Shown: positions 8,466 through 55,758 of the stretch, in pieces
Position numbering within the stretch: the stretch's first letter is position 1
How the letters are laid out: each line of letters begins with the position of its first letter
NCBI GenBank assembly: GCA_963759775.1
Contig: CAVXAH010000001.1
Location: 38,787-102,786 of the forward strand
DNA from: an uncultured bacterium
Lineage (GTDB): Bacteria; Patescibacteriota; Minisyncoccia; Phycocordibacterales; Phycocordibacteraceae
Length of the DNA stretch: 64,000 nt
Reading direction: 5' to 3'
Notes under the pieces: model-generated
What the model saw: only the letters and a program-made list of their open reading frames with translations
Database searches by the model: none
Told to the model about the DNA's origin: nothing
Made by a program: the position numbers and the translations under genes

Positions 8466-9554
8466 ATGGCTAAGGACTACTACTCAGTGCTGGGAGTTGA
8501 TAAGAAGGCAAGTACGGACGATATTAAGAAGGCGTTCCGCAAACTTGCTCACAAATACCATCCGGACAAGGGCGACGGGGACGAAGCGAAATTTAAAGAA
8601 GTAACGGAGGCGTACAGCGTCCTTGCGGACGAAAAGAAGCGTCGCGAATACGACACGTACGGTCAGGCATTTGCGGGTGGAGGAAGACGCGGTGGCGCTC
8701 CCGATTTTGGTGGTTTTGATTTTAGCCAGTTCCAACAGGGGTTCGGTAACGGTGGCGTGGAGTTTGACTTCGGAGACGTGTTTGAAGGATTTGGGGACAT
8801 TTTTGGTGGCGGGCGCCGCAGCAACCGCGCGAAGCGCGGTCGTGATATTTCTATTGACCTTGAAGTCACCTTCAAAGAATCCATTTACGGTACGAAGCGC
8901 ACTGTTTTGATAGCGAAAATTGCGACTTGCACCTCCTGCGCAGGCACCGGAGCCAAGTCTGAAACAGAAATGGAGACCTGCAAAACTTGCAATGGTTCAG
9001 GTCGTGTCCACGAGGCAAGGAATTCTATTCTCGGCCAGTTCACGAGCGTGCGCACCTGCGTTATGTGCGACGGGCTCGGAAAGATACCGAAAGAGAAATG
9101 CGCGGAGTGCAAAGGTCATGGCGTTCATCGCAAAGAAGAGGAAATTCAGGTGATGATCCCCGCTGGTCTTGAAAACGGCGAAATGATTCGTCTGCCTGCG
9201 CAAGGCGAAGCAGTGAAGGGCGGTTCTGCCGGTGACCTTTATGTAAAAGTGCATGTTGCGCCACACCCTACGTTTAGAAAGGACGGCAGCAACCTCGTTA
9301 TGGAGCTTCCCGTGAAGCTTACCGACGCGCTCCTTGGGAGCACGGTCTCTATTGAGACACTTGAAGGTAAAACACTTGAGGTGAAGATTCCACAAATGCA
9401 GCGCGCCGAAGAAATACTCCGTGTGAAAGGGAAGGGTGTGTCGTATGAAAACGGACGCGGCGACTTGCTTATCCACGTGCACGCTGCACTCCCGCACAAG
9501 CTCTCCGGTAAAGCGAAGAAGGCGGTAGAGGACCTGAAAGCAGAAGGACTCTAG
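8466..9554 (+). CDS. dnaJ: chaperone DnaJ
   Basis: J-domain with HPD (KYHPDK), G/F-rich linker, four CxxCxGxG zinc-finger repeats, C-terminal domains. Confidence 0.95.
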
Positions 9555-9701
9555 AACCCATTTCAAAATTTCGACACGAGCGGGGCACTGTCTCCGAGGG
9601 GGTCGCGAAGTACGACGGTGCGAGCGTTTCAGGCGTTTTTTGAGCACAAAAATGCCGTACCCGAGAAGGCAGTATCCCGTGAGTGGGTTTTGAAATGGGT
9701 T
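9555..9701. repeat. about 147-bp intergenic element with 14-bp terminal inverted repeat AACCCATTTCAAAA (family D, copy 1)
   Basis: about 85% identical to 51107-51246; internal conserved hairpin ggcgtttttt-gagcac-aaaaa(a)cgcc with a G-U compatible substitution. Confidence 0.7.
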
Positions 9702-9737: not shown

Positions 9738-10259
9738 ATGACCGCAGCTGATGGTTTGGCAGAAGTAAACACACTTGCCACCGAAACGGCACTTTCCGCA
9801 TGGGCCTGGGCCGGCGATTTTTTGATAGTCATTATTGTCTTCTCGCTCTTTTTCGTGTTTGCGTGGTACGCCGGGAGAGGACCCTTTGTTGCGCTTCTCT
9901 TGTCCTTGTACGGCGCGTACGCGGTGTACGTCGTATTTCCTTATATGTCGCTCTTACCAAGCGCGCCAGCCTCCACCGCGCTTGCGGCAAATATCGGACT
10001 CTATGCGGCATTTACGCTCGTGATCTACCTCATTTTGCGTCGCGTCATCGTATCTGATTTTCTTTTTATCGGAGTCATCGGAATTATTATCCTTGCCTTG
10101 CTTGGTGCCTGCTTCGTACTCGCACTCGCGCACCATGTATTTCCCGTAGAGAGTGTATACACGTTCACCCCTGCCGTTGATGCCTTGTTCGCGGCAAAAG
10201 AGTGGTTCTTCTGGTGGTTCATTGCTCCACTCGTCGGCCTTCTTTTCCTCGCTCATTAG
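9738..10259 (+). CDS. hypothetical integral membrane protein
   Basis: 173 aa, 4-5 hydrophobic helices, no known motif. Confidence 0.5.
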   Translation: MTAADGLAEVNTLATETALSAWAWAGDFLIVIIVFSLFFVFAWYAGRGPFVALLLSLYGAYAVYVVFPYMSLLPSAPASTALAANIGLYAAFTLVIYLILRRVIVSDFLFIGVIGIIILALLGACFVLALAHHVFPVESVYTFTPAVDALFAAKEWFFWWFIAPLVGLLFLAH

Positions 10260-10302
10260 TCAGCCCGCCTCTTGTGCTCCGTGGTATATTTTTGTCATGA
10301 AT

Positions 10303-10417
10303 CCCGTTAGAAATCGCGGACGCCGTCGAAGCCGTAAAGCGGGTTTTTTTACTAACCTTAATCGGATAGGGTTCGGTCGTGCAGTTACCTGCGTGTCCGC
10401 GTCCTATTTCTAACGGG
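10303..10417. repeat. MITE-like element (family A), TIR CCCGTTAGAAAT / ATTTCTAACGGG, abutting the tyrS ATG
   Basis: 12-bp perfect TIR extended by a covarying stem (atcgcggacgc / gcgtgtccgcg); internal TAATCGGATAGGG core shared, in inverted orientation, with 49096-49198. Confidence 0.7.
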
Positions 10418-11670
10418 ATGAACATCGCTGAGGATTTGAAGGCGCGAGGGCTCGTGGAGCACTCATCTGCTGATGTCGCCACCATTCTTGGCACCCCGCG
10501 TACGGTGTACCTCGGCATAGACCCCACTGCCGACTCACTCCACGTCGGGCACTTAGTTCCCATTCTTTTTATGAAGCGGCTTGCCGCGGCAGGTCATAAG
10601 CTTGTCTTTTTGGTTGGGGGCGGTACCGGCATGATTGGCGATCCGAAAGAGAAAGGGGAGCGCGTACTGCTTGATGAGAAAACCATAAGTAAAAATACGG
10701 AGGCTCTCAAAAAACAACTTGAAGACATTTTGGGACGCTTGCCATTCAAAATGGTAGACAACGCCACATGGCTCTCTAAGGTCCGTCTTGTGCCATTCCT
10801 TCGCGACATAGGAAAACACTTCACCGTAAACGACCTCGTAAAGCGCGACCTCATAGCAAAACGCCTTGCAACTCCGGATGAGAGTATTTCGTACACTGAA
10901 TTCACCTACTCACTTCTCCAGGCCTATGATTATTTGGAATTAAATACTAAATACCACTGCGATCTTCAGGTTGGGGCTTCGGACCAATGGACGAACATTC
11001 TTTCGGGTGTTGACCTTATCCGCAAGAAAAAGGAAAAGAAGCGTTCGCGCTCACGGTTCCTTTGGTTACTGACGCGAGCGGCAAAAAGTTTGGGAAATCC
11101 GAAGGAAATGCAGTATGGCTTGACCCTGAGAAGACATCTCCGTACCAGTTCTATCAGTTTTGGCTTGGCTTACCGGACGAAGGCATAGAAAAGTATCTCA
11201 AGATTTATACTACTCTTCCGCTTGGAGACATTGAGGCACTTATGGAGAAGCATCGCGCGGCTCCACAAGAGCGCGAGGCGCAAGAGGTGCTTGCGCGTTT
11301 CGCGACTGAGTCGTTGCATGGCCCAGCAAATACCGCAGAAGCGGCGGCGGCAACCGATGCGCTTTTTGGCGGACGCTCTCTTGAAAGCCTTAGTCGCGAC
11401 GAGCGTGAGGCGGTCATACGAGAAGTCCCATCCCTCGCACTTTCAAAGAAAGAACTTGAGGCAGGGTATCCACTTACTGAAGCACTAGTGGGAGGTAAGC
11501 TTGCTTCCTCAAAGTCCGATGCGCGCCGACTTATAGAAGGGAAGGCGGTTACTCTAAGCGGGCTGTTAATCGAAAATGCAGATCAAAAACTCTATCCGGG
11601 CGACCTCAGTGGCGGCCTCGCACTCATTCGCAAAGGCAAGCGCGATGTGCTCGTTTTGGTTTTGAAATAA
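10418..11670 (+). CDS. tyrS: tyrosyl-tRNA synthetase, apparent frameshift near 11030-11040 (A-run)
   Basis: class I HIGH motif (LHVGHL), KFGKSEGN (KMSKS-like), C-terminal S4 domain; pieces 10418-11188 and 11062-11670 colinear with TyrRS; start taken as MNIAEDLKARGLVE at 10418. Confidence 0.9.
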
Positions 11671-11699: not shown

Positions 11700-11783
11700 G
11701 CGTCGGTAGGTAAGTGGTCAAAACACGCACGCTGTAAACGTGCTGCCCTCGCGGCTTCGGAGGTTCGAATCCTCCCCGGCGCA
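11700..11783 (+). tRNA. tRNA-Tyr (anticodon GTA), type II with long variable arm; CCA not encoded
   Basis: acceptor stem GCGTCGG/CCGGCGC (one G-U), anticodon stem GCACG/CGTGC with loop CTGTAAA, T-arm GGAGG-TTCGAAT-CCTCC; D-arm pairing weak. Confidence 0.7.
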
Positions 11784-11798
11784 CACAAAAAAGGACGT

Positions 11799-11828
11799 CC
11801 CGAGCGTGAGCTCGGGCGTTTCTTTTTG
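11799..11828 (+). terminator. rho-independent terminator after tRNA-Tyr
   Basis: cccgagc-gtga-gctcggg followed by cgtttcttttt. Confidence 0.6.
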
Positions 11829-11833
11829 TGGCA

Positions 11834-11850
11834 GCCGGGGAGGATTCGAA
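11834..11850. repeat. inverted 17-nt copy of the tRNA-Tyr T-arm/acceptor 3' segment
   Basis: gccggggaggattcgaa is the exact reverse complement of ttcgaatcctccccggc at 11764-11780. Confidence 0.8.
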
Positions 11851-16654: not shown

Positions 16655-18004
16655 ATGGAACGAACACTCATAGGAGAACTTGGAAAACATACGGGAGAAA
16701 CGATTTCTATCTCAGGGTGGGTAGATGTTCGTCGCGACCAGGGAAAGCTCGTCTTTTTTGATTTCCGCGACCGAACAGGAATCGTCCAGGGCGTAGTGCT
16801 TCCAAAAAGTGAGGCCCTAGAAGCGGCGAAAGGTATCCGCAATGAATACGTCGTCCGCGTCGAGGGGGTCGTCAACAAGCGCCCAGAAAAAAATATCCAG
16901 ACGGACAAAGTAAACGGAGATATTGAACTAGAAATCAAAGCCATTGAGGTTCTCGCGCAAGCGGAAACACTTCCGTTTGACAGTGCCGCTGACCTTAACC
17001 TCGACACCCTTCTTGATTATCGCCCTCTCACCGTGCGCCGTAAGCGCGAACGCGCCCTTTTTAGAATCCAGCATGAACTGATTTCCGCATTTCGAACTTA
17101 CCTGAACGAGCAGGGCTTTACTGAATTCCAAGCTCCCAAAATAGTTGGTCCTGACGCTGAGGGTGGAGCCGGGGTCTTTAAACTTGAATACTTTAAAGAT
17201 AAGAGTGCGTACCTCGCCACCTCACCACAACTCTACAAACAACTCATGGTTGGCGCATTTGAACGCGTGTATGCCACGGGCCCACAATTTCGTGCAGAAA
17301 AACATTCAACCACCCGCCACCTGAATGAAATCTCAATGCTCGATTTTGAAATGGGATTCATCAAAGACTACACGGACGTGATGGATATGGTCGCTGGCTT
17401 TCTTCGGTATGCAACGAAACGTGTGGGAGAACGCCATGCCGAAGAACTCAAGGAATTTGGAACCCCGCTACCTCTTGCTCCAGATGCATTTCCAACGATG
17501 AAGCTTCGCGAGGCGCAGGAAATCATCTTTGCGGAAACAGGAAAAGATAAACGAGAGGAGCCTGATCTTGAGCCAGAAGATGAACGCTGGCTTTCTGAAT
17601 ACGCGCACAAGAAGTTTGGGAGCGATTTCTTGTTTGTGACACACTACCCGGTTTCCAAGCGGCCGTTTTACACGATGGAAGACCCCGAGGATCCTGGTTT
17701 TACAAAAAGCTTCGATCTTTTGTTCCGTGGCGTTGAAATTCTTTCCGGTAGTCAACGCGTTCATGAGTACCATACGCTTGTTGAAAAGATTAAGTCCAAG
17801 GGGCTTAACCCTGACAATTTTGCGTTCTATCTCATGGCCTTCAAGTATGGCCTTCCTCCACACGGTGGCATTGGCTTGGGACTCGAGCGTCTCACACAAA
17901 AATTCGCGGGTATTGAAAACGTAAAAGAGGCAACTCTCTTCCCGCGCGATATGAATCGTATTGACGTGCTTTTGTCAGCTGAAATTCCTGACGAAAAAGC
18001 ATGA
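16655..18004 (+). CDS. aspS: aspartyl-tRNA synthetase, archaeal/eukaryotic type
   Basis: N-terminal OB fold, class II motifs FRAE...HL.E and GIGLGLERL...FPRD; 449 aa without the bacterial insertion domain. Confidence 0.85.
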   Translation: MERTLIGELGKHTGETISISGWVDVRRDQGKLVFFDFRDRTGIVQGVVLPKSEALEAAKGIRNEYVVRVEGVVNKRPEKNIQTDKVNGDIELEIKAIEVLAQAETLPFDSAADLNLDTLLDYRPLTVRRKRERALFRIQHELISAFRTYLNEQGFTEFQAPKIVGPDAEGGAGVFKLEYFKDKSAYLATSPQLYKQLMVGAFERVYATGPQFRAEKHSTTRHLNEISMLDFEMGFIKDYTDVMDMVAGFLRYATKRVGERHAEELKEFGTPLPLAPDAFPTMKLREAQEIIFAETGKDKREEPDLEPEDERWLSEYAHKKFGSDFLFVTHYPVSKRPFYTMEDPEDPGFTKSFDLLFRGVEILSGSQRVHEYHTLVEKIKSKGLNPDNFAFYLMAFKYGLPPHGGIGLGLERLTQKFAGIENVKEATLFPRDMNRIDVLLSAEIPDEKA

Positions 18005-19425
18005 GGCTTGTTTTTACAAAAGGAACGATAGACGCCGCCCCCAAGGGTTATGTACGCGTGCGGATCACTCACGAACCAAAAGGAACGAGGAAGTTTGTTC
18101 GCGAGGGCGCCGTTGAGTGGCTTGAGCTCGGTGCAGGAAAACCAACGGACATGAACTACCGTAAGTTTATGGTGCTGTGCCGATCTGTTGTTCAAACCGC
18201 TAAAGGAAATAAAGCAAGAAAAATTGCTATTCAGTTTGACCGTACTCCTGAATTTTTTGAAAATTTGCAGAACCATACGCCTGAAGAAATTTCACGTGTC
18301 GCGGCAGAGAATTTTGAGATGGCGAACTTTGACTGGAATGTCTTTAAAACGAAACCAAAAGAGGGGTGGAATACGGTAGAAGAAATCCTCCTCTACGGCG
18401 GGTCTTCAAAGTCAATTGAGAAGGCTGCGCAAGTGGGTCAGATGGTGGGGCAGGGCGTAAATGCCTGCCGGGCACTTGCAAACACCCCAGGGGGCGACAT
18501 GACTCCCCTGAAGCTCGCCAAAGCCGCAAAAGAGGCTGTAAAAGGGCTTGCCGGTCAAGGTAACTACCCTTGGGCAAGAAAGAGATGGAAAAGCTTGGTA
18601 TGGGGGCTCTTTTGGGGGTCGCAAAAGGGTCGTCCGAGGAGCCTACATTTACCGTCATGGAGTACCGAGCTGGCGGCAAAGAAAAGCCCAGTCGTGCTTG
18701 CCGGTAAGGGAGTTACGTTTGATAGCGGCGGACTCAATTTGAAACCCTCCGGAAGCATTTATGAAATGCATATGGATATGTCGGGTGCCGCTTCTGTCAT
18801 ACACGCCGTTGCGCTCGCCGCTCGTCTCAAACTCAAAAAGAATGTCATCGGACTTCTTCCGTCCGTTGAAAACATGCCGGGCAATAGCGCGTATCGCCCC
18901 GGAGATGTGCTCAAATCTCTTTCTGGAAAAACTATTGAGGTCTTGAATACGGATGCAGAGGGTCGCCTGATTCTTGCCGATGCACTTACGTATGCAAAAC
19001 GTTTCAATCCGTCAGTTGTATTTGATGTAGCGACACTCACTGGTGCAGCAGTCTCTGCGCTTGGTCTTCATGCAAGCGGACTCATGACGCGCGACGACAA
19101 AGTCGCGAAAAAAGTGGAGGAAGCGGGCGAGGAGTCGGGAGATTATGTGTGGCGTCTCCCGCTTTGGGATGAATACGAAGAAGCGATAAAGGGAACGTTC
19201 GCTGATATCACTAATTCCGCAACGGGCCCGTACGCGCGTTCTGGCGGCGCAATAGAGGGCGGCATGTTCCTCTGGCAATTTGCAAAAGAACTCGGAGTGC
19301 CCGTGGGTGCATCTTGATATTGCGCCACGGATGACTGCGGCGCCGGGAGACGAGCTTGCGAAGGGTGCGGCCGGAGCCCCCGTGCGACTCCTGGTAAAAT
19401 TTATAGAACAATGGCCGTCACACTA
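18001..19425 (+). CDS. pepA: leucyl aminopeptidase (M17 family), with clustered apparent frameshifts (near 18550, 18575, 18690, 19300)
   Basis: NTDAEGRL signature and VLAGKGVTFDSGG; alternative frames encode KKEMEKLGMGALLGVAKGS and the true C-terminus WVHLDIAPRM...VRLLVKFIEQW ending at 19425. Confidence 0.85.
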
Positions 19426-19548
19426 AACAGTGTTGCCGCACGCACGATTACGAGAGTGGTACTATTTAAAAATGACTTTCCCTACACGAAAATCCCCAAG
19501 TCCTAATGACGGTGCGGCCAAAGCCGCGACACCGTTTTAGTGTGTCGG
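19415..19548. repeat. MITE-like element (family B), TIR CCGTCACACTAAAC / GTTTTAGTGTGTCGG, filling the pepA-scpA junction
   Basis: each TIR is the exact reverse complement of the opposite TIR of the GIY-YIG element at 22259-22542; the left TIR contains the pepA stop codon. Confidence 0.75.
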
Positions 19549-19551
19549 CCA

Positions 19552-20289
19552 ATGGAAACCCTAGTTCATCGCACTGGATTTTCTATTAAAACTGCCTCGT
19601 ATGAGGGACCCTTTGAGGTTGTGCTTGACCTTATAGAGGCACGTAAACTTTTGATAAATGAATTTGCGCTCGCAACCATAACTGACGACTACATTCAGCA
19701 TGTTCGAAAGCAGGAAACATTTCCGGTTGAGCAAACGGCAAATTTCATTCAAATCGCTGCAACTCTCCTCCTCATAAAATCAAAGTCGCTTATTCCGGAC
19801 CTTGAGCTCACCGAAGATGAGCAGGGGGATGTGGAGGATTTGAAGAGACGACTTGCTACGTACGAGCGTGTACGAGACGCGGCGCGCGAGCTTGCTCGTG
19901 TGTTTGGAAAAGAAGTGATGCTCCCGGCAGGGGAGAAGAAGCCTGAGGTCATGTTTGCGCCTGCGGCAGATATGACGAGCTTGGCGCTTTCCGAAGCGCT
20001 CGCGCGTGTACTTGCCGCACGCGAAGCAGTGGAAGAACTCCCCGAAGCGCGCGTAAAGCCGATGATTACTATTGAAGAGATGATGGATCGTCTCGCAAAA
20101 CGTGTGCAGTCGGCCATGACGCTTTCTTTCAAGGAATTCTCCGGAACCGCAAAAGAAAAAGTGGAAGTGATTGTTTCTTTCCTCGCTCTCCTTGAGCTTG
20201 TGAAGCAGGGTGCCGTTGGTGCGGAGCAGTTTGAAAACCACGGCGATATTCGTATTTCTCATACCGGCACAGGCGTCCCGAGCTATTGA
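19552..20289 (+). CDS. scpA: segregation and condensation protein A
   Basis: ScpA family N-terminus (FEGPFEVVLDLIEARKL..I.E..LA.ITDDY) and C-terminal winged helix; start taken at METLV. Confidence 0.8.
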   Translation: METLVHRTGFSIKTASYEGPFEVVLDLIEARKLLINEFALATITDDYIQHVRKQETFPVEQTANFIQIAATLLLIKSKSLIPDLELTEDEQGDVEDLKRRLATYERVRDAARELARVFGKEVMLPAGEKKPEVMFAPAADMTSLALSEALARVLAAREAVEELPEARVKPMITIEEMMDRLAKRVQSAMTLSFKEFSGTAKEKVEVIVSFLALLELVKQGAVGAEQFENHGDIRISHTGTGVPSY

Positions 20290-20554: not shown

Positions 20555-20597
20555 CAAGCCCCCGCTGCAAAACCTAGGTTTTGCAGCGGGGGCTTTA
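20555..20597 (+). terminator. rho-independent terminator
   Basis: agcccccgctgcaaaacc-tag-ggttttgcagcgggggcttt. Confidence 0.7.
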
Positions 20598-21309: not shown

Positions 21310-22257
21310 ATGGACACTCCAGAACTCCAGGCACTCGCGAAACATGCGCGCTTTATGAAAGAAGCCGGTATCGCGCTCCTCCTCTCTTGTGTGGTTCTTG
21401 CGGCATTTCTTTTTATTCCGCTTACTTCACGCTCAGAAGATACGAACGATGTGCTGATCACAAAACCCGTTGCAATAAACGCATATGCGGACATTCCGCT
21501 TCAAGCGGAAGCCGCGATTGTGTACGACTTGGTAAGCGAGGAAACCCTTTTTGATAAAAACGCAGATGCGCAGTTGCCACTCGCTTCGCTCACAAAACTC
21601 CTCACGGTGTACGCGGCGCTTGCAGAAATTGCACCCGGAACACCAATCACTATTTCAAAAAGCGCCTCGGCAAGTGAGTACCCGCGCCTTTTTGCTTCCG
21701 GCGAAACGCTCTCGCTCGCTGACCTCTCGCGTCTCACGCTTACCGGTTCTCTAAACGATGGTGCCGCCGCAATAGCGGAAACCATAGCCGCGCGCAAACA
21801 AATATCCATGCACGCGATGCTCGCGAGTGCTGCGACGGCGCTCGGTCTTTCACAAACGTACGCCGTAAACGGAAGCGGACTTGATGAGAGCCTGACTGTT
21901 TCTGGCGCATATGGCTCGGCACACGACGTGGCGCTTCTCGCAGGTGCGCTCGTCAAGCGTGCTCCCACCATTGCTTCTGCAACCACCGAATCCTCCGCAA
22001 CTGCTGCCAATGAGTCCGGAAAAACTTATACCGTAAACAATACAAATCCGACTGTTATTTATACGGCACGACTTCTCCTTTCAAAGACCGGATTCACCGA
22101 CCTCGCCGGCGGAAACTTGGTGCTTGTCTTTGATGCCGGAATTGACCATCCTGTTGCGGTTGTCGTGCTCGGCTCCACCGAAAAAGACCGCTTCACCGAT
22201 GCAACTGCACTTGTTGCCGCTACCCTTGCGCACTTCTCAGGAGTTTCTTCTCTATGA
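21310..22257 (+). CDS. D-alanyl-D-alanine carboxypeptidase (S11 serine peptidase, PBP5-like)
   Basis: SxxK (ASLTKLLT), SGN-like (NGSGL) and KTG (KTGFT) motifs; N-terminal membrane anchor. Confidence 0.8.
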   Translation: MDTPELQALAKHARFMKEAGIALLLSCVVLAAFLFIPLTSRSEDTNDVLITKPVAINAYADIPLQAEAAIVYDLVSEETLFDKNADAQLPLASLTKLLTVYAALAEIAPGTPITISKSASASEYPRLFASGETLSLADLSRLTLTGSLNDGAAAIAETIAARKQISMHAMLASAATALGLSQTYAVNGSGLDESLTVSGAYGSAHDVALLAGALVKRAPTIASATTESSATAANESGKTYTVNNTNPTVIYTARLLLSKTGFTDLAGGNLVLVFDAGIDHPVAVVVLGSTEKDRFTDATALVAATLAHFSGVSSL

Positions 22258-22258
22258 C

Positions 22259-22542
22259 CCGACACACTAAAACAACCTTGCGAGACGACTATGTATTACG
22301 TATATATTTTGCAAAGTAAGAAAGACGGGAAGTTTTACACGGGATACACCACTGATTTACGACGTCGTCTCGCAGAACACACGACAAGAGCCTCAATCTC
22401 AACGCGCTCGCGACTTCCTCTGCAACTGTTATATTACGAAGCATATATGTCGCAGGCCGACGCAAAATCTAGAGAGTATCGCCTTAAGACTTCTCAAGGC
22501 GCGCGCACTGCATTAAAGCGACGAGGTCGTTTAGTGTGACGG
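22259..22542 (+). mobile_element. TIR-flanked GIY-YIG gene unit (family B putative autonomous copy)
   Basis: imperfect 15-18 bp TIRs CCGACACACTAAAAC / GTTTAGTGTGACGG immediately flank the ORF; right TIR overlaps the ORF stop and the mraY start; same TIR family as 19415-19548. Confidence 0.55.
22291..22539 (+). CDS. GIY-YIG nuclease superfamily protein (YhbQ/UPF0213-like)
   Basis: 82 aa, YVYIL..K.GK.YTGYT.DL.RRL.EH then Y.E motifs. Confidence 0.8.
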   Translation: MYYVYILQSKKDGKFYTGYTTDLRRRLAEHTTRASISTRSRLPLQLLYYEAYMSQADAKSREYRLKTSQGARTALKRRGRLV

Positions 22543-23606
22543 GTATGATTAGTCTCGCCGCTCAAGTTTTCATCCCATCTGCAATCGCGTTCGCGCTTGG
22601 CATCGTCTTTGCGCCACTTCTCGCTGGAATTTTATATGAAAAGAAAGCGTGGAAAAAGAAAGCGGGGAAGGGTAATGGTATGGGCGGCGGTGGCACTCCT
22701 ATTTTTGATGAACTTCATAAGATACGGGAGGTTTCAACGCCACGCATGGGCGGCATTTTAATCTGGGCATCGGTTTTAGCGACCGCATTTGGAATCTGGC
22801 TCCTCGCTCGAACCGTGGGTGGTGTTTTTCTTGACCTCAACTTCATAGACCGAAGCGAAACGTGGCTCCCCATTTTTGCACTGTTTGTTGGGGCCATTGC
22901 GGGACTCTTTGATGACCTTCTAGAGATATCTTCAGGCACGGGAGGTCTCTCTCTTCGCGGAAGACTCGCCATTGTAGCGGTAATGGGGCTTGCTGCGGGA
23001 TGGTGGTTTTATACAAAACTCGGCGTTACGGCTCTCGGCATTCCTTTCGGGAATCCGCTTGAACTGGGCGCTCTTATCATTCCATTTTTTGCTCTGGTAA
23101 CCCTCGCTATTTATGCGGGCGGGACAATTGATGGAATTGACGGACTTGCGGGGGGAGTTTTTGCAATTATTTTCATGACGTACGCCGGCATCGCCTTTGG
23201 AGAGAGCCAGTTCGCACTCGCAACCTTCGCTGCAACGTGTGCAGGCGCGACACTGGCTTTTCTTTGGTTCAACATCCCACCCGCGCGCTTCTATATGTCG
23301 GAAACCGGCAGTATGGCTCTTACGCTTGCGCTTGCCATGACCGCGTTTGCGGCCGATAACCTTGCAAAGGGCGTGGGGGTGTTCGTGCTTCCTCTCGTCG
23401 CGCTTCCACTCACCGCAACGGTCATTACGACCCTGCTTCAGGTGTTTTGGAAAAAGTCCTTTCATACCAAACTTTTCATGGTCGCGCCTATTCACCATCA
23501 TTTTGAAGCTCTTGGTTGGCCACCCTATAAAGTCACGATGCGCTACTGGGTGATTACGATCATTGCCGGTGTTTTGGGCCTTTCAATCGCGCTCATTTCC
23601 GCGTAG
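22536..23606 (+). CDS. mraY: phospho-N-acetylmuramoyl-pentapeptide transferase
   Basis: DD motif, DGIDGLAGG, HHHFE motif (PIHHHFE), 10 TM helices. Confidence 0.9.
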   Translation: MTGMISLAAQVFIPSAIAFALGIVFAPLLAGILYEKKAWKKKAGKGNGMGGGGTPIFDELHKIREVSTPRMGGILIWASVLATAFGIWLLARTVGGVFLDLNFIDRSETWLPIFALFVGAIAGLFDDLLEISSGTGGLSLRGRLAIVAVMGLAAGWWFYTKLGVTALGIPFGNPLELGALIIPFFALVTLAIYAGGTIDGIDGLAGGVFAIIFMTYAGIAFGESQFALATFAATCAGATLAFLWFNIPPARFYMSETGSMALTLALAMTAFAADNLAKGVGVFVLPLVALPLTATVITTLLQVFWKKSFHTKLFMVAPIHHHFEALGWPPYKVTMRYWVITIIAGVLGLSIALISA

Positions 23607-31268: not shown

Positions 31269-31404
31269 CCCTGGGGTACAGCATGGCATTGCTCCTAAGT
31301 GGCTAGCCGTGACGTAGAAATATAGAGATTATTAAATCAATACCGCACGAGGAGCAGAGCGGACATCGGAGCAAAAAGCCACGATGCCATGCTGTCCCAC
31401 GGGG
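31269..31404. repeat. MITE-like element (family C), 21-bp TIR CCCTGGGGTACAGCATGGCAT, directly upstream of the rplI start
   Basis: right end ATGCCATGCTGTCCCACGGGG is a near-perfect reverse complement; second copy at 53369-53500. Confidence 0.7.
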
Positions 31405-31446
31405 CATAGTCAGGCTATCCTAACCGTTTAAACGCCAAAAGGCAAC

Positions 31447-46072: not shown

Positions 46073-47362
46073 TTATCTCCGTTTCCACTCCTTCTCTTGC
46101 CTTACCAATTTAGAGACGTTTGCGGGGTCGGCAAGAAGTGCCTCCACAATGCGTTCGGTCCGGATAGACTGCGAACCTTTTATAAGTACTACGTCCCCTT
46201 CTTTCACAAAGGTAGGCAGGGTGGCGGCCGCGGCATGAGAATCTTCAAGAGCAAATGCACGCTCGGCCGACATGCCCGCAAGACGTGCCGCCTCTACCAT
46301 TTGCTTTGAGCGAATCCCTACCCCCACCACCACGTCTGCCGCATCTGCCGCAGAAGCGCCGATGCGGGAGTGTTCAGTCACGGAGTAGCGACCAAGCTCA
46401 AGCATGTCTCCCAGCACGGCGATACGACGACCGCGACAAGGAAACTCTTTCAAATTCCACAACGCTTCTTCAACTGCAGCAGGAGAAGAATTATAGGATT
46501 CATCAATAAGATACGAGCCATGTTTCCCCAAAAGGAGCCGACCGCGTCCGGGCGGAGGAACAAAAGCAGCGAGTGCCTCTATCGCCTCTTTGAGTGAGAT
46601 ACCAAATACGCTTGCCGCGGCGATGGCCGACCCCACAGAAAGCATCTGTGTGCGACCTATAGAACCCCTCACTATAGCGGGAACCTTTTTACCCGCGAAA
46701 GTTACGATGGCTTGCATGCCGGAGGCCATGCCGCTCTCTTCGTACAATTCAATTTGATCCAATCGCACATTTGATTCCGGCTCAACGCCGTACGTGACCA
46801 GACGCACCGGAAGACGCTTTGCCATTTCTTTCGCAAACGAATCGCTTTCCGAAATGATGAGTGGCGCGGCAGACGGAAGTGCATACGCCGGTGAGAATTC
46901 TTCTTCTCTGACCGCCTGTGGGGTTGCGTACGCCTCTACGTGCACAGGGACGTCCGGCAAGCGCGTAATGACGACCGCGTCTGGGGTTGCGATTTTGAGT
47001 ATTTTCGCGAGGTCGCCTGGTCGGTCCGCTCCCACTTCAAGCACCAAGAGGTTTGGGTAATGGTTCGGGAGAAAGAGAAGCGAGAAAATCTGCTTTATAA
47101 TTTTTGTCCACGCAAGCGGGTTTCCCCATGGGTTGGGAACTCCAAAAACAGTAAAAGGAACTCCAAACTCTGTGTTGTAGCTCTTCTCACTTTTGCGGAC
47201 AAAGAAACGCGAAGAAAGTGCGGCAGCTACCGCATCTTTCGTTGAGGTCTTCCCCACCGAGCCACTAATCATCACTACCTTGGGGCGATAGCGCCGCACC
47301 ACCTGGTGCGCCGCTATGGCGAGAACGCGCGCAACACACGATTTGAGAAAATCCCTAATCAT
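46073..47362 (-). CDS. murF: UDP-N-acetylmuramoyl-tripeptide--D-alanyl-D-alanine ligase
   Basis: Mur ligase P-loop GSVGKTSTKD, GDMLELG motif characteristic of MurF. Confidence 0.9.
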   Translation of the reverse strand: MIRDFLKSCVARVLAIAAHQVVRRYRPKVVMISGSVGKTSTKDAVAAALSSRFFVRKSEKSYNTEFGVPFTVFGVPNPWGNPLAWTKIIKQIFSLLFLPNHYPNLLVLEVGADRPGDLAKILKIATPDAVVITRLPDVPVHVEAYATPQAVREEEFSPAYALPSAAPLIISESDSFAKEMAKRLPVRLVTYGVEPESNVRLDQIELYEESGMASGMQAIVTFAGKKVPAIVRGSIGRTQMLSVGSAIAAASVFGISLKEAIEALAAFVPPPGRGRLLLGKHGSYLIDESYNSSPAAVEEALWNLKEFPCRGRRIAVLGDMLELGRYSVTEHSRIGASAADAADVVVGVGIRSKQMVEAARLAGMSAERAFALEDSHAAAATLPTFVKEGDVVLIKGSQSIRTERIVEALLADPANVSKLVRQEKEWKRR

Positions 47363-49095
47363 AGTGAGGAGGGCGTAGTGGCACGGTCGGGCGGTACGTC
47401 GTAGTAATTAATCAGGAAGTGAGTCAGGTTCATGAAGGTAGAAGTGAGTGTTTCGGATGCGTAGCGAACCCCTTGCGGATCGTTGGTGTAAAGGAGAATG
47501 ATAAACCGCGGCGCGTACGAAGGAAAGTAGCCGAAGAAGGAGTGGAAGTACCTATCTTTGTAGTACCCGCCTCCGGGCATGGTGAGCTGGGCAGTTCCGG
47601 TCTTTGCCGCAACAGACATAGACGCTATTTTTTCCTTTCCCTGCGCAAGGTCAAAGTCAACGACGTGAGTAAGCATTCCCGCGACCGTGCGCACTGCCTC
47701 CGGAGAAAACACCTCCACTGTCTCCGGTGGCTCAAGAGTCCGCGTGATGCCGGTATCAAGCTTAATGGCGCGCGTGAGGTAGGGCCGAGCCATTGCCCCG
47801 TCGTTTGCGAGCGCACTTAAGGCACTTATCATTTGCACCGGTGTTACCGCGATACCTTGGCCAAATGAGGCGGTGTCGTAACCTACCTGCTGCGGCCTTG
47901 AGATGTTTTGGAGAAGACTTCCCGTTTCACTTGGAAGGTCAATGTGTGTCTTCTCGCCAAAGAGGGTCGTGAAGTACGTTCGGAGTCGCTCTTTGCCGAG
48001 TTGTCGCCCAACCCAGGAGGCGCCGAGGTTCAAAGATTCCGACAAAATTTGCTGTACCGCTACCCTTCCGCGCGCCTTGAGGTCAAAGTTGCAAATAGTG
48101 TAGGTATCCACGTCCATACAACCCGTATCGTTATAGGTTGAGTCGGCGGTTATCGCATCCGCATCAAGGCCAGCGGCCACAGTGAGTGGCTTCACTATGG
48201 AGCCAAATTCATACACATGCTCCACAAGCGGATTCCCGAGAACCGCCGGGTCAACACTTGAGAGATCGTTCGGGTTGTAGGTCGGGACCGTGAGAAGAGC
48301 GAGAACGGCTCCTGTGCGCGGGTCCATAATGATTCCGCCTGTTTCTTTGCTCTTAAATTTCGCGTGCACTGCTTTAATTTCACTCTCAAGCCGAGTCGCA
48401 ACCGCGGGCTCAATGGTGGTTACCACATTGCCCTCACGTACGTTTTTTGTATCAATGAGTAAATCCCCCGCGCCTGAGAAAAGGGTTGCGAAGAAATTTT
48501 TATAAAGAGAGTCACCGCTGCGCGCGAGTGTGTGGTCATAGTACGACTCAAGACCTGTTCGTCCGGAAAGACTGTCGCCGCTACCATAGGAAACGATGCC
48601 AACTGACTGTGCCGCAAGCGTCCCTCCAGGATACTCTCTCCAGCGCTCACGAAGCACTATGACGCCGGGTATTTTAAGCGCGGCGAGCGCGCGACCTTCC
48701 TCTTCCAAAAGATGATGCGCTATCTCAACATACACACGCTCGGACCGTAGAGATGCGGCGAGGAATACCTCACGGTCAATGGTAGAGGTGGCGAGTGCGG
48801 TCGTAAGGGAGTTGTAAGCGGCTTCGGGGTCTTTAAGGGTCTGGGGATTCATTGCGAGCAAAAACCCCGTTTGAAGGGTCGCGGCTGAAATGAGTGCTCC
48901 GTCCTTGCGAGTGAAATAAATAGACCCGCGATCAAAAAGTCCACTTATGCCGCCGGAAAACTGCCGCTCGGCCTTGAGCGCATACGTTTCTCCCTGCACG
49001 ATTTGGACAATGTAGAGGCGTCCGGCGATAAGGATCGCGATGATAAGAATTCCGAGAAATACAAGTCGGATACGGAGTCTAAACTGCGCGCGCAT
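47359..49095 (-). CDS. ftsI: penicillin-binding protein (transpeptidase; FtsI/PBP3-like)
   Basis: SxxK (SIVK), KTGTA motifs, N-terminal TM; dcw position before murF. Confidence 0.9.
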   Translation of the reverse strand: MRAQFRLRIRLVFLGILIIAILIAGRLYIVQIVQGETYALKAERQFSGGISGLFDRGSIYFTRKDGALISAATLQTGFLLAMNPQTLKDPEAAYNSLTTALATSTIDREVFLAASLRSERVYVEIAHHLLEEEGRALAALKIPGVIVLRERWREYPGGTLAAQSVGIVSYGSGDSLSGRTGLESYYDHTLARSGDSLYKNFFATLFSGAGDLLIDTKNVREGNVVTTIEPAVATRLESEIKAVHAKFKSKETGGIIMDPRTGAVLALLTVPTYNPNDLSSVDPAVLGNPLVEHVYEFGSIVKPLTVAAGLDADAITADSTYNDTGCMDVDTYTICNFDLKARGRVAVQQILSESLNLGASWVGRQLGKERLRTYFTTLFGEKTHIDLPSETGSLLQNISRPQQVGYDTASFGQGIAVTPVQMISALSALANDGAMARPYLTRAIKLDTGITRTLEPPETVEVFSPEAVRTVAGMLTHVVDFDLAQGKEKIASMSVAAKTGTAQLTMPGGGYYKDRYFHSFFGYFPSYAPRFIILLYTNDPQGVRYASETLTSTFMNLTHFLINYYDVPPDRATTPSSL

Positions 49096-49198
49096 CCCGT
49101 TAGAAATAGAACACGAACACTCTCGAAGTGTTGTGCCCTATCCGATTAGGTCCAATAATCATATGCCTCATCATATCGTGTTCGTGATTTCTAACGGG
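49096..49198. repeat. MITE-like element (family A), TIR CCCGTTAGAAAT / ATTTCTAACGGG, abutting the ftsI start codon
   Basis: 12-bp perfect TIRs, covarying sub-terminal stem (agaacacgaaca / tgttcgtgat), internal CCCTATCCGATTAGG core inverted relative to 10303-10417. Confidence 0.7.
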
Positions 49199-49213
49199 AC
49201 GCATTGTACAAGA

Positions 49214-51096: not shown

Positions 51097-51106
51097 CGTC
51101 AAAATC

Positions 51107-51246
51107 TATTTCAAAACCTCAACACGAGCGGGGCACTGCATCCGAGGGGGTCGCGAAGTTGGGCGGTGCGAGCGTTTCAGGCGTTTTTTGAGCACAAAAA
51201 ACGCCGTACCTGAGGAGGTAGTGGCCCGTGAGTGGGTTTTGAAATA
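51107..51246. repeat. about 140-bp element with 12-bp TIR TATTTCAAAACC (family D, copy 2), ending 4 nt from the lysK stop
   Basis: about 85% identity with 9555-9701 including the perfect hairpin ggcgtttttt-gagcac-aaaaaacgcc. Confidence 0.7.
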
Positions 51247-51250
51247 AGCA

Positions 51251-53368: not shown

Positions 53369-53500
53369 CCCTGGGGTACAACATGGCATCGTGTCTTTAG
53401 CTCCAACGATCAAAAGCTATAAACCTTTTGTTTTTATGTGACGTCTGGCAACTGAAATAAACGTAGGACACGAAGAGTAATGCCATGTTGTCCCACGGGG
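53369..53500. repeat. MITE-like element (family C) copy 2, TIR CCCTGGGGTACAACATGGCAT / ATGCCATGTTGTCCCACGGGG, 48 nt upstream of greA
   Basis: TIRs match 31269-31404; internal sequence differs but keeps sub-terminal complementarity. Confidence 0.7.
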
Positions 53501-53524
53501 CAAGCCCATAAGGAAAAATCGATT

Positions 53525-55226: not shown

Positions 55227-55493
55227 TTATCCCGTTAGAGATAGGAAGCGCTTGAGCCGGTTTTTGAGATAACGCTTACCCATTCCCGTTTTGAGGTACT
55301 TTTCACGCGCAAAAGCATCTTCGGCCGTTTGAGATGCTTCGTAATATATGAGTGTGAATGGACCACGTCCTTTAGTGTACGCCACTCGATTTGAATTGTG
55401 CAGGGCCAAGCGCTTCCGAAGATCTTTCGTGCAGCCGGTATACCATCGACCGTCACTTTTAGCTTGGAGAACGTACACATACACAAACGACAT
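55227..55493 (-). CDS. GIY-YIG nuclease superfamily protein (YhbQ/UPF0213-like), paralog of 22291-22539
   Basis: 88 aa, VYVYVL....G.WYTGCT.DL.KRL..H and YYEA motifs. Confidence 0.8.
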   Translation of the reverse strand: MSFVYVYVLQAKSDGRWYTGCTKDLRKRLALHNSNRVAYTKGRGPFTLIYYEASQTAEDAFAREKYLKTGMGKRYLKNRLKRFLSLTG

Positions 55494-55506
55494 AATCTCT
55501 AACGGG
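55231..55506 (-). mobile_element. TIR-flanked GIY-YIG gene unit (family A putative autonomous copy)
   Basis: perfect 12-bp TIRs CCCGTTAGAGAT / ATCTCTAACGGG lie 1-3 nt outside the stop and start codons of the GIY-YIG ORF; same TIR family as three MITE-like copies. Confidence 0.6.
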
Positions 55507-55758
55507 ACGCGATAATACTCGTCTCAAAGAATCTGCGCACGGAATAGGAAAGCAGTGCGGCGAGTGCCCCAAGAGTGCTGTACAGAAAGGGTGGATGTAT
55601 ACCCGGGACATAGTAGAGAATGTCAGCGAAAAGCCCTATAGCAAGCACCGAAAGTGGCGAGACGATTCCCGCAAGTAGCGCGAGCAGTCCCGATACGACT
55701 GCTGGAAATACAAAAAGTGAGGCGATGGCAGACAAAATAATGGTCGCGCGGATGTTCA
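55499..55758 (-). CDS. mreD: putative rod shape-determining protein MreD (small polytopic membrane protein)
   Basis: position after mreC; hydrophobic 85-110 aa; annotated from the GTG at 55758 because the longer ATG start (55834) lies inside the repeat element. Confidence 0.45.

Follow-up and report, generated by a model that had tools for sequence, protein, structure and literature searches.

A short ORF-less insertion at a pepA/scpA junction belongs to a family of very small TIR-bounded mobile elements found at gene boundaries

We show that the sequence lying between pepA and scpA in the window (the whole 64-kb stretch of DNA analyzed here) is a recently inserted copy, non-autonomous and lacking any ORF, of a mobile element that is very small and bounded by TIRs; we call this copy el1. 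The full form of the element encodes a GIY-YIG nuclease and nothing else. This nuclease probably mobilizes the family, with the gene-boundary sites probably resulting from target preference plus selection.

As listed in Table 1, the best-placed boundaries of el1 are 19414-19549 with CAATG as the target duplication (TSD). The left end reads CCGTCACACTAAAC at 19415-19428 (+), and the right end reads CCGACACACTAAAA, an imperfect inverted match of CCGTCACACTAAAC, at 19535-19548 (-); the arms run to 26 and 27 nt with 23 matches and one gap. Their core 9-mer, CACACTAAA, occurred four times in the window versus 0.36 expected, a count reached in 0 of 100 shuffles, and the two copies that do not belong to el1 mark the termini of another element, el2. 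The sequence forms a long hairpin (RNA MFE -50.9 kcal/mol, z = -4.5) and is without coding capacity, being interrupted in all six frames. An Rfam scan of the window returned two tRNAs only and no RNA family at el1. A crude count gave 34 inverted-repeat pairs versus 7-14 in shuffles, a rough indication of enrichment that was not relied on.

The element was missing from the orthologous site in three relatives (L085, L086/L087, and L089). At these empty sites the two genes share a 13-nt overlap, as they do in the gene table of an 87%-identical relative, and the refuting condition set originally, that orthologous pepA genes end in the same sequence without an identifiable TIR pair, did not hold. 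On the ERR12037361 contig, pepA and scpA are separated by 102 nt, which makes it a candidate for an independent insertion at this junction. CAATG was present once at the empty sites of L086 (GAACAATGGA), L087, and L089 (GAAGAATGGAAACCC). The single CAATG over the 13-nt overlap in relatives without el1 indicated that el1 is an insertion accompanied by a 5-bp target duplication. The MITE-like nature put forward in the original prediction was thus borne out by the TIRs, the CAATG duplication, and the empty sites.

Both neighboring genes were rebuilt at the junction. Duplication of CAATG regenerated the scpA ATG, which starts 2 nt past the preferred right end at 19549 and, as first proposed, 3 nt past 19548. 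On the other side, the left TIR does supply the pepA stop codon: the C-terminal frame (19280-19426), ...LLVKFIEQWPSH*, enters the TIR for three codons and then terminates, so that the PepA C terminus changed from ..EQWKP*, the ancestral end rebuilt from L089 and L086, to ..EQWPSH*. The pepA gene had been treated as frame-corrected, and rightly so, as its frame shifts once close to 19295 and twice more, in a compensating manner, at about 18560-18690. It is decaying.

The second element, el2, lies 2.7 kb downstream and is the full-length member of the same family (family B), with termini identical to those of el1 over 14-15 nt. The stop codon of its ORF (TGA, 22537-22539) lies within the right TIR. 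It was inserted in the ATGA overlap of dac and mraY with the TSD TATGA; the empty site, ACCTATGATTAGTCTCGCCGC, is present in L089, and the dac/mraY overlap is 4 nt in the 87%-identical relative. Compared with its closest homologues, the ORF misses 7 residues near the C terminus, which makes the activity of the el2 nuclease uncertain.

Table 1. Elements, repeats, and adjoining genes in the window
Feature	Position	Strand	Remarks
el1, ORF-less MITE-like family-B element, 136 bp	19414..19549	- (relative to full-length copies)	TIRs, hairpin, empty sites
TIR arm adjoining pepA, GCCGTCACACTAAACAGTGTTGCCGC	19414..19439	.	holds TAA 19424-19426
TIR arm adjoining scpA, GCCGCGACACCGTTTTAGTGTGTCGGC	19523..19549	.	
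el1 left TSD copy, CAATG	19409..19413	+	single copy at relatives' empty sites
el1 right TSD copy, CAATG	19550..19554	+	contains scpA start codon 19552-19554
pepA, M17 leucyl aminopeptidase	18001..19426	+	Pfam PF00883, E = 4e-90; 3 frameshifts
scpA, intact	19552..20289	+	Pfam PF02616; 78% identity to L086 ScpA, single frame
el2, full-length family-B element, 286 bp	22258..22543	+	el1 termini: CCGTCACACTAAAC / GTTTTAGTGTGTCGG
el2 GIY-YIG nuclease ORF, 82 aa	22291..22539	+	PF01541, E = 1.9e-15
el2 left TSD copy, TATGA	22253..22257	+	dac stop codon TGA kept
el2 right TSD copy, TATGA	22544..22548	+	mraY ATG 22545-22547 kept
family-A ORF-less copy, TIR TCCCGTTAGAAAT	10302..10417	.	TSD ATGAA, 10297-10301 and 10418-10422; right copy is tyrS start
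family-A ORF-less copy	49096..49199	.	TSD CGCAT, 49091-49095 and 49200-49204
family-A full-length element	55231..55507	-	88-aa GIY-YIG ORF, 55227-55493 (-)

The relationship between el1 and el2 was further examined with nhmmer. A full-length family-B DNA profile recovered el2 and the family-A nuclease gene, while in el1 it matched the terminal ~23-29 nt only, non-significantly when taken alone (E = 2.3 and 9.3), and detected no homology between the el1 interior and the nuclease gene. Since these matches are terminal only, derivation of the el1 interior from the nuclease gene cannot be claimed. Within the 64-kb window, el1 is the only short copy of family B. One further family-B short copy, with a different interior, was the single match of one metagenome scan for 120- to 150-bp copies of the family: this 134-nt-class copy in metagenome L088 lies in the rplO/secY overlap with the TSD CCATG and carries 5' and 3' ORF remnants, which a four-way alignment showed to be clear in L088 and weak in el1.

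Family A, like family B, occurs in short and full forms in the window (two short copies and one full copy), and the coding partner of each family carries only a small GIY-YIG gene. Family-A copies had originally been placed against the tyrS, ftsI, and mreD start codons and the mreC stop codon. The two short copies are indeed flush with the tyrS ATG and with the ATG of a PBP/ftsI-like gene (47359-49095, -), the left CGCAT at 49091-49095 being the reverse complement at that start codon. The assignments to the mreD start and mreC stop, however, did not stand; the third site holds the full-length copy, located between the PBP2 start (55222) and an mreD-like gene that takes its TAG stop from the TIR. 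No recognizable TSD was found for this full-length copy at 55231-55507.

The same architecture was found in other genomes. The full form is ~275-320 bp, and its sole ORF encodes an ~82- to 90-aa single-domain UPF0213/Slx1-like GIY-YIG nuclease, with the left TIR 10-35 nt upstream of the ATG and the right TIR encoding the last codons and the stop. TIRs bracketed the nuclease ORF at about 50 of the 80 homologous loci retrieved from CPR and other phyla. Their sequence varies by subfamily while the arms remain complementary, and the TIR subfamilies follow the protein subfamilies even between phyla that are very distant. Direct repeats of 5 nt or more flanked 33 of 54 elements, versus 4 of 54 when the positions were shifted as a control. 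Furthermore, short copies occurred alongside matching full-length copies in L028, L032, L035, and L055 (two copies).

Precise insertion at gene boundaries, as originally suggested from a handful of sites, proved to be a real, family-wide property, which in ultra-small (CPR) bacteria falls strikingly on start codons and gene 5' ends. All four clear TSDs in the window include the ATG of the neighboring gene. In other genomes, an ORF started within -4 to +3 nt of the right TIR in 11-12 of 32 non-tRNA full-length elements, for which a random-position control gave 7.3% over a wider, 20-nt window. The 5' end of a tRNA gene was adjoined by 17 of 49 elements, and at least two of the 49 involved RNase P RNA genes, one lying inside and one overlapping the 5' end; the element of L068 (9973-10272) falls within the RNase P RNA match at 9898-10550. 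Four elements were flush with an ATG although 43-280 nt of free spacer lay upstream, which argues for targeting and not only shortage of space, and thus agrees with the preference for start and stop contexts that had been proposed. The TSD register was constant within each class, TATGA recurred at three unrelated loci, and a uniform 5-bp TSD model fitted every unambiguous protein-gene case. The tRNA-adjacent copies carried 9- to 14-nt repeats overlapping the TIR ends and did not fit a simple 5-bp model.

The el2 and family-A ORFs belong to the UPF0213/Slx1-like clade of the GIY-YIG superfamily. They scored 57.4 and 53.4 bits against PF01541 (gathering cut-off 22.6), and profile matches included the UPF0213 structures PDB 1zg2 (E = 3e-14) and 1ywl (E = 1e-9) as well as SLX1 (E = 1e-3). 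The AF2 model of the el2 nuclease (pLDDT 82) has an alpha/beta fold, for which Foldseek returned UPF0213, Slx1, and I-TevI, with UPF0213/Slx1 at ranks 1-8. The nearest sequence relatives are likewise UPF0213 proteins, namely BH0048 (41%), YazA (43%), and YhbQ (30%). Among 43 homologues, Y5, Y16, R26, and H30 were invariant and E62 nearly so; a catalytic role is assigned to these five GIY-YIG motif residues by analogy with other enzymes of the superfamily. At 50% identity, 5,734 clusters matched the nuclease profile with E <= 1e-10. The flanks of E. coli yhbQ showed only a weak 13/18 inverted repeat, which was not counted as evidence.

How such elements might move can be outlined from these features. 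The GIY-YIG protein would be the mobilizing enzyme and would also move the short copies in trans. An analogy to Slx1 and to the characterized 94-aa Ssn nucleases makes it probable that the protein recognizes the paired TIRs as an ssDNA stem or branched structure and cuts at the base of the stem. GIY-YIG enzymes are hydrolytic nucleases, and to our knowledge no strand-transfer activity has been reported for them; joining would therefore need a host ligase or repair. Two causes may underlie the boundary placement. One would be sequence preference, in which pentamers of the (T)ATG(A) type are favored, with the first ~10 nt of tRNA genes as the likely preferred target of other subfamilies. The other would be strong purifying selection in a gene-dense genome of ~0.6 Mb, where an insertion may survive only if its TSD restores a start codon and its TIR supplies a stop. 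Carried further, these elements could represent a new enzymatic class of autonomous DNA transposon, with an ~85-aa UPF0213/Slx1-like GIY-YIG transposase that recognizes the paired TIRs, a 5-bp stagger, and ORF-less copies mobilized in trans, a possible reading that we stop short of calling probable. At about 0.28-0.32 kb, transposons of this kind would rank among the smallest known, and they would target (T)ATG(A) start/stop junctions as well as tRNA and RNase P RNA genes at their 5' ends.

Because 5-bp TSDs together with TIRs are the classical signature of DDE-type transposition, because strand-transfer catalysis by GIY-YIG enzymes is not known, and because our inspection covered 64 kb of a genome of ~595 kb, one may ask whether short and nuclease-bearing copies alike are passive TIR cassettes moved by an unlinked conventional transposase, the GIY-YIG gene being cargo such as a repair or anti-phage nuclease. 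We consider this unlikely. The right TIR belongs to the nuclease coding sequence, the full-length element contains no other ORF, and no longer element with the same TIRs was found in about 1 Mb of flanking DNA; moreover, with TIR and protein subfamilies tracking each other across phyla, a matching unlinked transposase would be required in every lineage. It is more doubtful still that the gene is a free-standing homing endonuclease spread by double-strand-break repair, with the repeats as by-products and the short copies as decayed genes. Homing makes no target duplication, whereas clean 5-bp TSDs were seen against empty sites, and the insertion sites are numerous and unrelated. The GIY-YIG fold is common to I-TevI, but the protein, at 82-90 aa, lacks a DNA-binding domain, and its weak TIGR01453 match reached 24 bits versus a cut-off of 56. 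Phage free-standing homing-endonuclease genes are placed just as precisely between genes, and homing typically targets conserved genes such as those for tRNA and RNase P RNA. Short copies found at new sites with both TIRs and TSDs intact imply that copies lacking the ORF have moved. Residence in a group I intron was not observed either, as Rfam revealed nothing but the two tRNAs in the window. A study of CPR rRNA genes similarly placed GIY-YIG insertions 'outside the context of homing' (PMC11270868).

The last alternative, and to us the least probable, holds that el1 has been co-opted and that its TIR stem serves as an RNA-level module, be it an RNase III site, an insulator, or a translational coupling opened by ribosomes as they enter the left arm. 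Such a role would accord with the strong RNA hairpin, in which the pepA stop lies 10 nt into one arm and the other arm is followed after 2 nt by the scpA ATG, and with the co-variation of the TIR arms. The host of L068 also tolerates an element inside its RNase P RNA gene, and comparable insertions were reported within CPR rRNA genes (PMC11270868). Tolerance, however, is not function. The element is absent from relatives whose ScpA is 78-87% identical, and the compact 13-nt overlap persists in them; a scan of 19200-19800 found no promoter or terminator consensus, and pepA is decaying. On these same grounds, the idea that the elements had been domesticated as gene-boundary regulatory modules is not supported.

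A family of mobile elements carrying only this nuclease would have several implications. It connects tiny GIY-YIG proteins, which form a large and functionally orphan family, with a selfish-element life style, and it describes a route for colonizing genomes almost devoid of intergenic DNA, through overlapping stop and start codons and the first bases of RNA genes, where the target duplication and the element's own ends rebuild whatever the insertion interrupted. For the annotation of CPR genomes, it accounts for altered C termini, apparent 'spacers' of 100-300 nt, and small 'excinuclease-like' ORFs. If the nuclease is structure- or sequence-specific as the Ssn nucleases are, each subfamily would be a candidate programmable ssDNA tool. 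If the new transposon class is true, it would explain what a large orphan protein family does and how such repeats spread, possibly including those described as Ssn associated.

Among known systems, the UPF0213/YhbQ/YazA/Slx1-like nucleases provide the best sequence and structure matches and share the minimal single-domain layout. E. coli yhbQ, unlike the mobile element here, exists as a single copy, its annotation is that of a DNA-damage-response nuclease, and no description of mobile behavior for it was found in the searchable literature. Bacterial MITEs, such as the Correia elements of Neisseria and the Rickettsia palindromic elements, are small, ORF-less, TIR-bounded, and hairpin-forming sequences with a TSD, which lie at gene borders or are tolerated inside genes and have ends common to a longer coding element. 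With its TIRs, a TSD verified against the empty site, no ORF, and ends common to the coding el2, el1 has these traits. The coding partner, however, measures just ~0.3 kb, and its product is a GIY-YIG nuclease instead of a recognized transposase; the TSD is 5 bp and usually includes a start codon, unlike in the MITEs named. REP/BIME-RAYT systems and the 'peel and paste' IS200/IS605 elements also pair a small nuclease gene with flanking palindromic repeats on which the enzyme acts, use an ssDNA-hairpin mechanism, and have repeats spread through intergenic space. They employ HUH/Y1 transposases and subterminal hairpins and make no TSD, whereas a GIY-YIG protein, TIRs, and a TSD are found here; membership in these groups was rejected on that basis. 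Assignment to the I-TevI-like homing endonucleases is likewise improbable, given the lack of an extra domain, the sub-threshold TIGR01453 score (24 versus 56), and the 5-bp TSDs.

Insertions encoding GIY-YIG proteins have been described in CPR rRNA genes, where they are not introns and were judged not to spread through homing (PMC11270868). They share the host group and the protein superfamily with our elements, lie within structural RNA genes, and are probably the same kind of element. That study mentions inverted repeats, direct repeats, and palindromes 0 times each, and ORF-less derivatives and protein-gene targets are absent from it (PMC11270868). In the literature on GIY-YIG elements, we found no account of TIRs, TSDs, and short copies behaving together in this way.

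The closest precedent, as far as the accessible part of its description goes, is the Ssn/NTS system, in which single-domain GIY-YIG nucleases cut ssDNA beside flanking hairpin repeats (Chenal et al. 2025, Nat Commun, PMC11893778). There too, a gene for a single-domain GIY-YIG protein of ~90 aa has inverted-repeat motifs on both sides, further copies of the motifs are scattered over the genome, for the most part outside genes, and motif and nuclease co-vary (PMC11893778); the spacing of key residues is alike (Y6/Y17/E64 in SsnA versus Y5/Y16/E62 here). The repeats differ in that those described for Ssn are self-contained hairpins of 20-50 nt, whereas ours are true TIRs 100-280 nt apart, and the SRM pattern HGTCWY..YYVSBRH..WNVSBRG..RNCYNB had 0 matches in the window, including the <=100 nt around all five elements. 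The elements described here have 5-bp TSDs, verified empty sites, and ORF-less derivatives, and they target start codons and the 5' ends of tRNA genes, none of which features in the accessible Ssn account (PMC11893778). In the same portion of that account, the authors remark on an IS-like architecture and leave mobility as a hypothesis (PMC11893778), for which the empty sites, target duplications, and ORF-less derivatives reported here offer sequence-level evidence.

The 136-bp ORF-less family-B element at the pepA/scpA junction (el1; Table) has terminal inverted repeat (TIR) arms reaching 26 and 27 nt and is predicted to form a long RNA hairpin (MFE -50.9 kcal/mol, z = -4.5), with none of 200 shuffles being equally stable. 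As the original prediction held, a TAA in the left TIR ends pepA, the C-terminal frame ...FIEQWPSH* closing at 19424-19426 within the arm, and the right TIR stops 3 nt short of scpA, the imperfect inverted partner of the left TIR extending to 19548 and the ATG beginning at 19552. Relatives' syntenic contigs were reached via ScpA homologues, and comparison of their pepA-scpA spacers, the refuting test put forward with the original prediction, did not refute the reading of el1 as a mobile element. A 13-nt pepA/scpA overlap was found in the fetched loci L085 (82% ScpA identity), L086 and L087 (78%), and L089 (80%), and an 87% relative shows it in its gene table. The empty-site DNA read ...TTTATAGAACAATGGACCCGATAA in L086 and ...ATAGAAGAATGGAAACCCTAA in L089, whereas the filled site in the window was GAACAATG, the 136 bp, and then CAATGGAAACCCTAG. 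This result indicated that el1 entered the overlap with duplication of CAATG, the right copy of which supplies the scpA ATG; the PepA C terminus changed from ..EQWKP* before insertion to ..EQWPSH* now. The frame correction assumed for pepA was also warranted: a single frameshift lies near 19295, and two that offset each other lie at about 18560-18690. The surrounding aspS, scpA, scpB, dac, mraY, and ftsW were single-frame genes. Given three frameshifts and six intact neighbours, pepA is probably a pseudogene, whose decay possibly dates from the insertion-altered C terminus. In the P0125 contig (ERR12037361) of an 81%-identical relative, pepA and scpA were 102 nt apart with no overlap, a gap that may mark a separate insertion into this junction. 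The scpA-scpB spacer was unusually long (about 450 nt) and held a perfect 20+20-nt palindrome; in L086 and L087, two additional ORFs occupy this spacer.

Four copies of the core CACACTAAA were counted in the window, where 0.36 would be expected, and the two outside el1 delimited el2, a 286-bp full-length family-B element. The termini of el1 and el2 had 14 and 15 identical bases, and a DNA profile of full-length copies detected no nuclease-gene homology in the el1 interior beyond the terminal 25-29 nt or so. The only ORF of el2 (82 aa) matched Pfam GIY-YIG (E = 1.9e-15). Its nearest solved structures were UPF0213 (1zg2, E = 3e-14; 1ywl) and SLX1, and its AlphaFold model (pLDDT 82) resembled UPF0213, the Slx1 nuclease domain (TM 0.6-0.68), and the I-TevI catalytic domain. 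Motif residues Y5, Y16, R26, and H30 were invariant among homologues, and E62 nearly so. The L089 empty site carried one TATGA, and the sequence to its right was identical (ACCTATGATTAGTCTCGCCGC); dac and mraY overlapped by 4 nt in the 87% relative. Thus, the dac TGA survives in the left target-site duplication (TSD) of el2 and the mraY ATG in the right one.

With the same DNA profile, a second nuclease gene was found, an 88-aa GIY-YIG ORF (PF01541, E = 3e-14) between family-A TIR arms. Family A is the same kind of element as family B. A TAG in the left arm of this full-length copy stops an upstream mreD-like gene, and PBP2 starts 8 nt past the right arm. The predicted family-A contacts with gene boundaries thus stood for the tyrS and ftsI-like ATGs, which lie in TSDs, but not for the third copy, which had been placed at the mreD start and mreC stop and in fact lies between the mreD-like stop and the PBP2 start. 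All four clear TSDs of the window included the neighbouring start codon. The tyrS ORF ends after 256 aa, and its match to the Pfam profile tRNA-synt_1b (292 positions) reaches only position 181; it may be truncated or frameshifted. Two further repeat families were present, and no coding partner for the third, MITE-like one was seen in the window or the fetched loci.

Table. Features of the window
Feature	Position	Sequence	Context
el1	19414-19549	CAATG (TSD)	pepA/scpA
el1 TIR arms	19414-19439, 19523-19549
el1 outer TIR	19415-19428	CCGTCACACTAAAC	imperfect inverted partner at 19535-19548
pepA	18001-19426
Palindrome	20556-20595	AAGCCCCCGCTGCAAAACCT / AGGTTTTGCAGCGGGGGCTT	scpA-scpB spacer
el2	22258-22543	TATGA (both flanks)	between dac and mraY; opposite to el1
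el2 ORF	22291-22539		stop TGA within right TIR
Family-A short copy	10302-10417	ATGAA (clean 5-bp TSD)	includes tyrS ATG
Family-A short copy	49096-49199	CGCAT (clean 5-bp TSD)	reverse complement of PBP/ftsI-like gene's ATG
Family-A nuclease gene	55289-55483 (-)	TCCCGTTAGAGAT (arms)
tyrS ORF	10418-11188
Third family	31269-31405	CCCTGGGGTACARCATGGCAT (TIR)	flush with CAT, start of minus-strand ORF beginning MKVILTKDV (L9-like by reading)
Third family	53369-53502	CCCTGGGGTACARCATGGCAT (TIR)	just 3' of PBP2 gene
Fourth family (about 150 bp, ~90% identical)	9553-9700, 51101-51247	(G)AACCCATTTCAAAA / TTTTGAAATGGGTT(C)
tRNA-Tyr	11700-11784		followed by its own 3' end in inverted orientation (arms 11764-11800, 11814-11850; 81% complementary)

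Homologues were mostly from Kaiserbacteria and other Parcubacteria. A profile search yielded 5,734 clusters at 50% identity (E ≤ 1e-10), and 80 loci were fetched from species-representative genomes among at least 592 confirmed matches. TIRs bracketed the nuclease ORF in about 50 of the 80, with the left arm 10-35 nt upstream of the ATG and the right arm over the last codons; the TIR sequence was subfamily-specific, and the two arms were complementary in every case. Direct repeats of at least 5 nt flanked 33 of 54 elements, compared with 4 of 54 in a shifted control. Seventeen of 49 elements lay directly 5' of a co-oriented tRNA; here, tRNA nt 1 to 2-10 (usually 4-6) fell inside the TIR end as drawn, and on the opposite side tRNA nt 1 to 9-11 were repeated. 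In L068, an Rfam RNase P RNA match (9898-10550) spanned the whole 300-bp element (9973-10272), which therefore sits inside an essential ribozyme gene, and in L022 the RNase P RNA gene (10253-10703) begins within the right TIR. An ORF (≥80 codons) started within -4 to +3 nt of the right arm in 11-12 of 32 non-tRNA elements, versus 7.3% for random positions with a 20-nt window, and the left arm housed the stop codon of many upstream genes. ORF-less and matching full-length copies occurred together in L028, L032, L035, and L055. Within the rplO/secY overlap of a metagenome contig (L088) lay a short family-B copy (134-nt pattern match); the secY ATG falls in its TSD, CCATG, its TIR provides the rplO stop, and both 5' and 3' remnants of the nuclease ORF persist in it. 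In L021 (1832-2426), a tandem pair of identical nuclease elements, each flanked by the same GGGCCAGTAGT repeat, was located 5' of tRNA-Ala. In L031, L036, and L069 (tRNA-Pro) and L020 (tRNA-Ser), the 4-6 outermost nt of each TIR arm tracked the host tRNA 5' end (CGGGCT/AGCCCG, CGGAGC/GCTCCG, CGGGCC/GGCCCG; flanking repeat 9-14 nt), a pattern that could reflect co-evolution where the site is fixed, or else a target mimicking a TIR-N5-TIR joint.

Scarce intergenic space accounts for part of the boundary placement, because el1, el2, and the L088 copy landed in overlaps. It is insufficient for all of it, since the element was flush with the ATG in A1, L012, L028, and L072 although 43-280 nt of free spacer lay upstream, and since the ATG register within the TSD was constant for each class: ATGAA, ATGAA, and ATGCG in family A, TATGA at three unrelated loci and TATG at two in full-length family-B copies, and CAATG and CCATG in short ones. 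The mobile-element reading was thus borne out, and these observations supported the proposed target preference for start/stop contexts, whereas the alternative, domestication as gene-boundary regulatory modules, was unsupported. We conclude from the sequences that the elements appear to prefer (T)ATG(A)-like pentamers and, in other subfamilies, tRNA 5' segments. After such a preference, selection would filter insertions: those whose duplication restores the start codon (and, in ATGA overlaps, the stop codon too) and whose TIR gives a nearby stop would do no harm. Full-length copies were co-oriented with the downstream gene and el1 was inverted; therefore, the orientation bias probably reflects the nuclease gene's need for expression.

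Insertion occurred with 5-bp duplication, termini were common to ORF-less and nuclease-coding copies in two families, and TIRs co-varied with the nuclease protein. The GIY-YIG nuclease would be expected to mobilise both short and full-length forms, probably by acting on paired TIRs, as suggested by its Slx1/UPF0213 affinity and by the precedent of the single-domain GIY-YIG nucleases (Ssn). GIY-YIG enzymes are hydrolytic. Joining might proceed through ligation of 5-nt cohesive ends, a route that could explain the recurrent TATGA as well, or alternatively through host repair.

The closest known system is Ssn/NTS (Chenal et al. 2025). In PMC11893778, SsnA is described as a GIY-YIG enzyme of 94 aa with a single domain; its binding to the flanking hairpin repeat is restricted to ssDNA, and cleavage falls a few nucleotides upstream of the repeat. 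The authors liken NTS-ssnA-NTS to an insertion sequence. In contrast, the SRM pattern of Ssn gave no matches in the window, the nearest protein relatives here are UPF0213 (BH0048; YazA, 43%; YhbQ, 30%), and the repeats form true TIRs accompanied by TSDs, empty sites, and ORF-less derivatives. The E. coli K-12 yhbQ (L090, 3923-4265), whose annotation is DNA-damage-response nuclease, lies between the arms of a weak 13/18 inverted repeat placed in the same way (one arm upstream of the ATG, the other on the last codons), which may be chance. In a CPR rRNA study (PMC11270868), non-intron insertions that encode GIY-YIG were reported as lying "outside the context of homing", and neither inverted nor direct repeats were mentioned; those insertions and the present elements are probably the same. 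No description of GIY-YIG elements with TIR, TSD, MITE, or transposase behaviour was found in the open-access papers searched, which is not proof of novelty. The element is best classed with MITEs and with Ssn-like repeat-nuclease units, as a variant of both, and the probability that it exemplifies a new enzymatic class of very small transposons is substantial.
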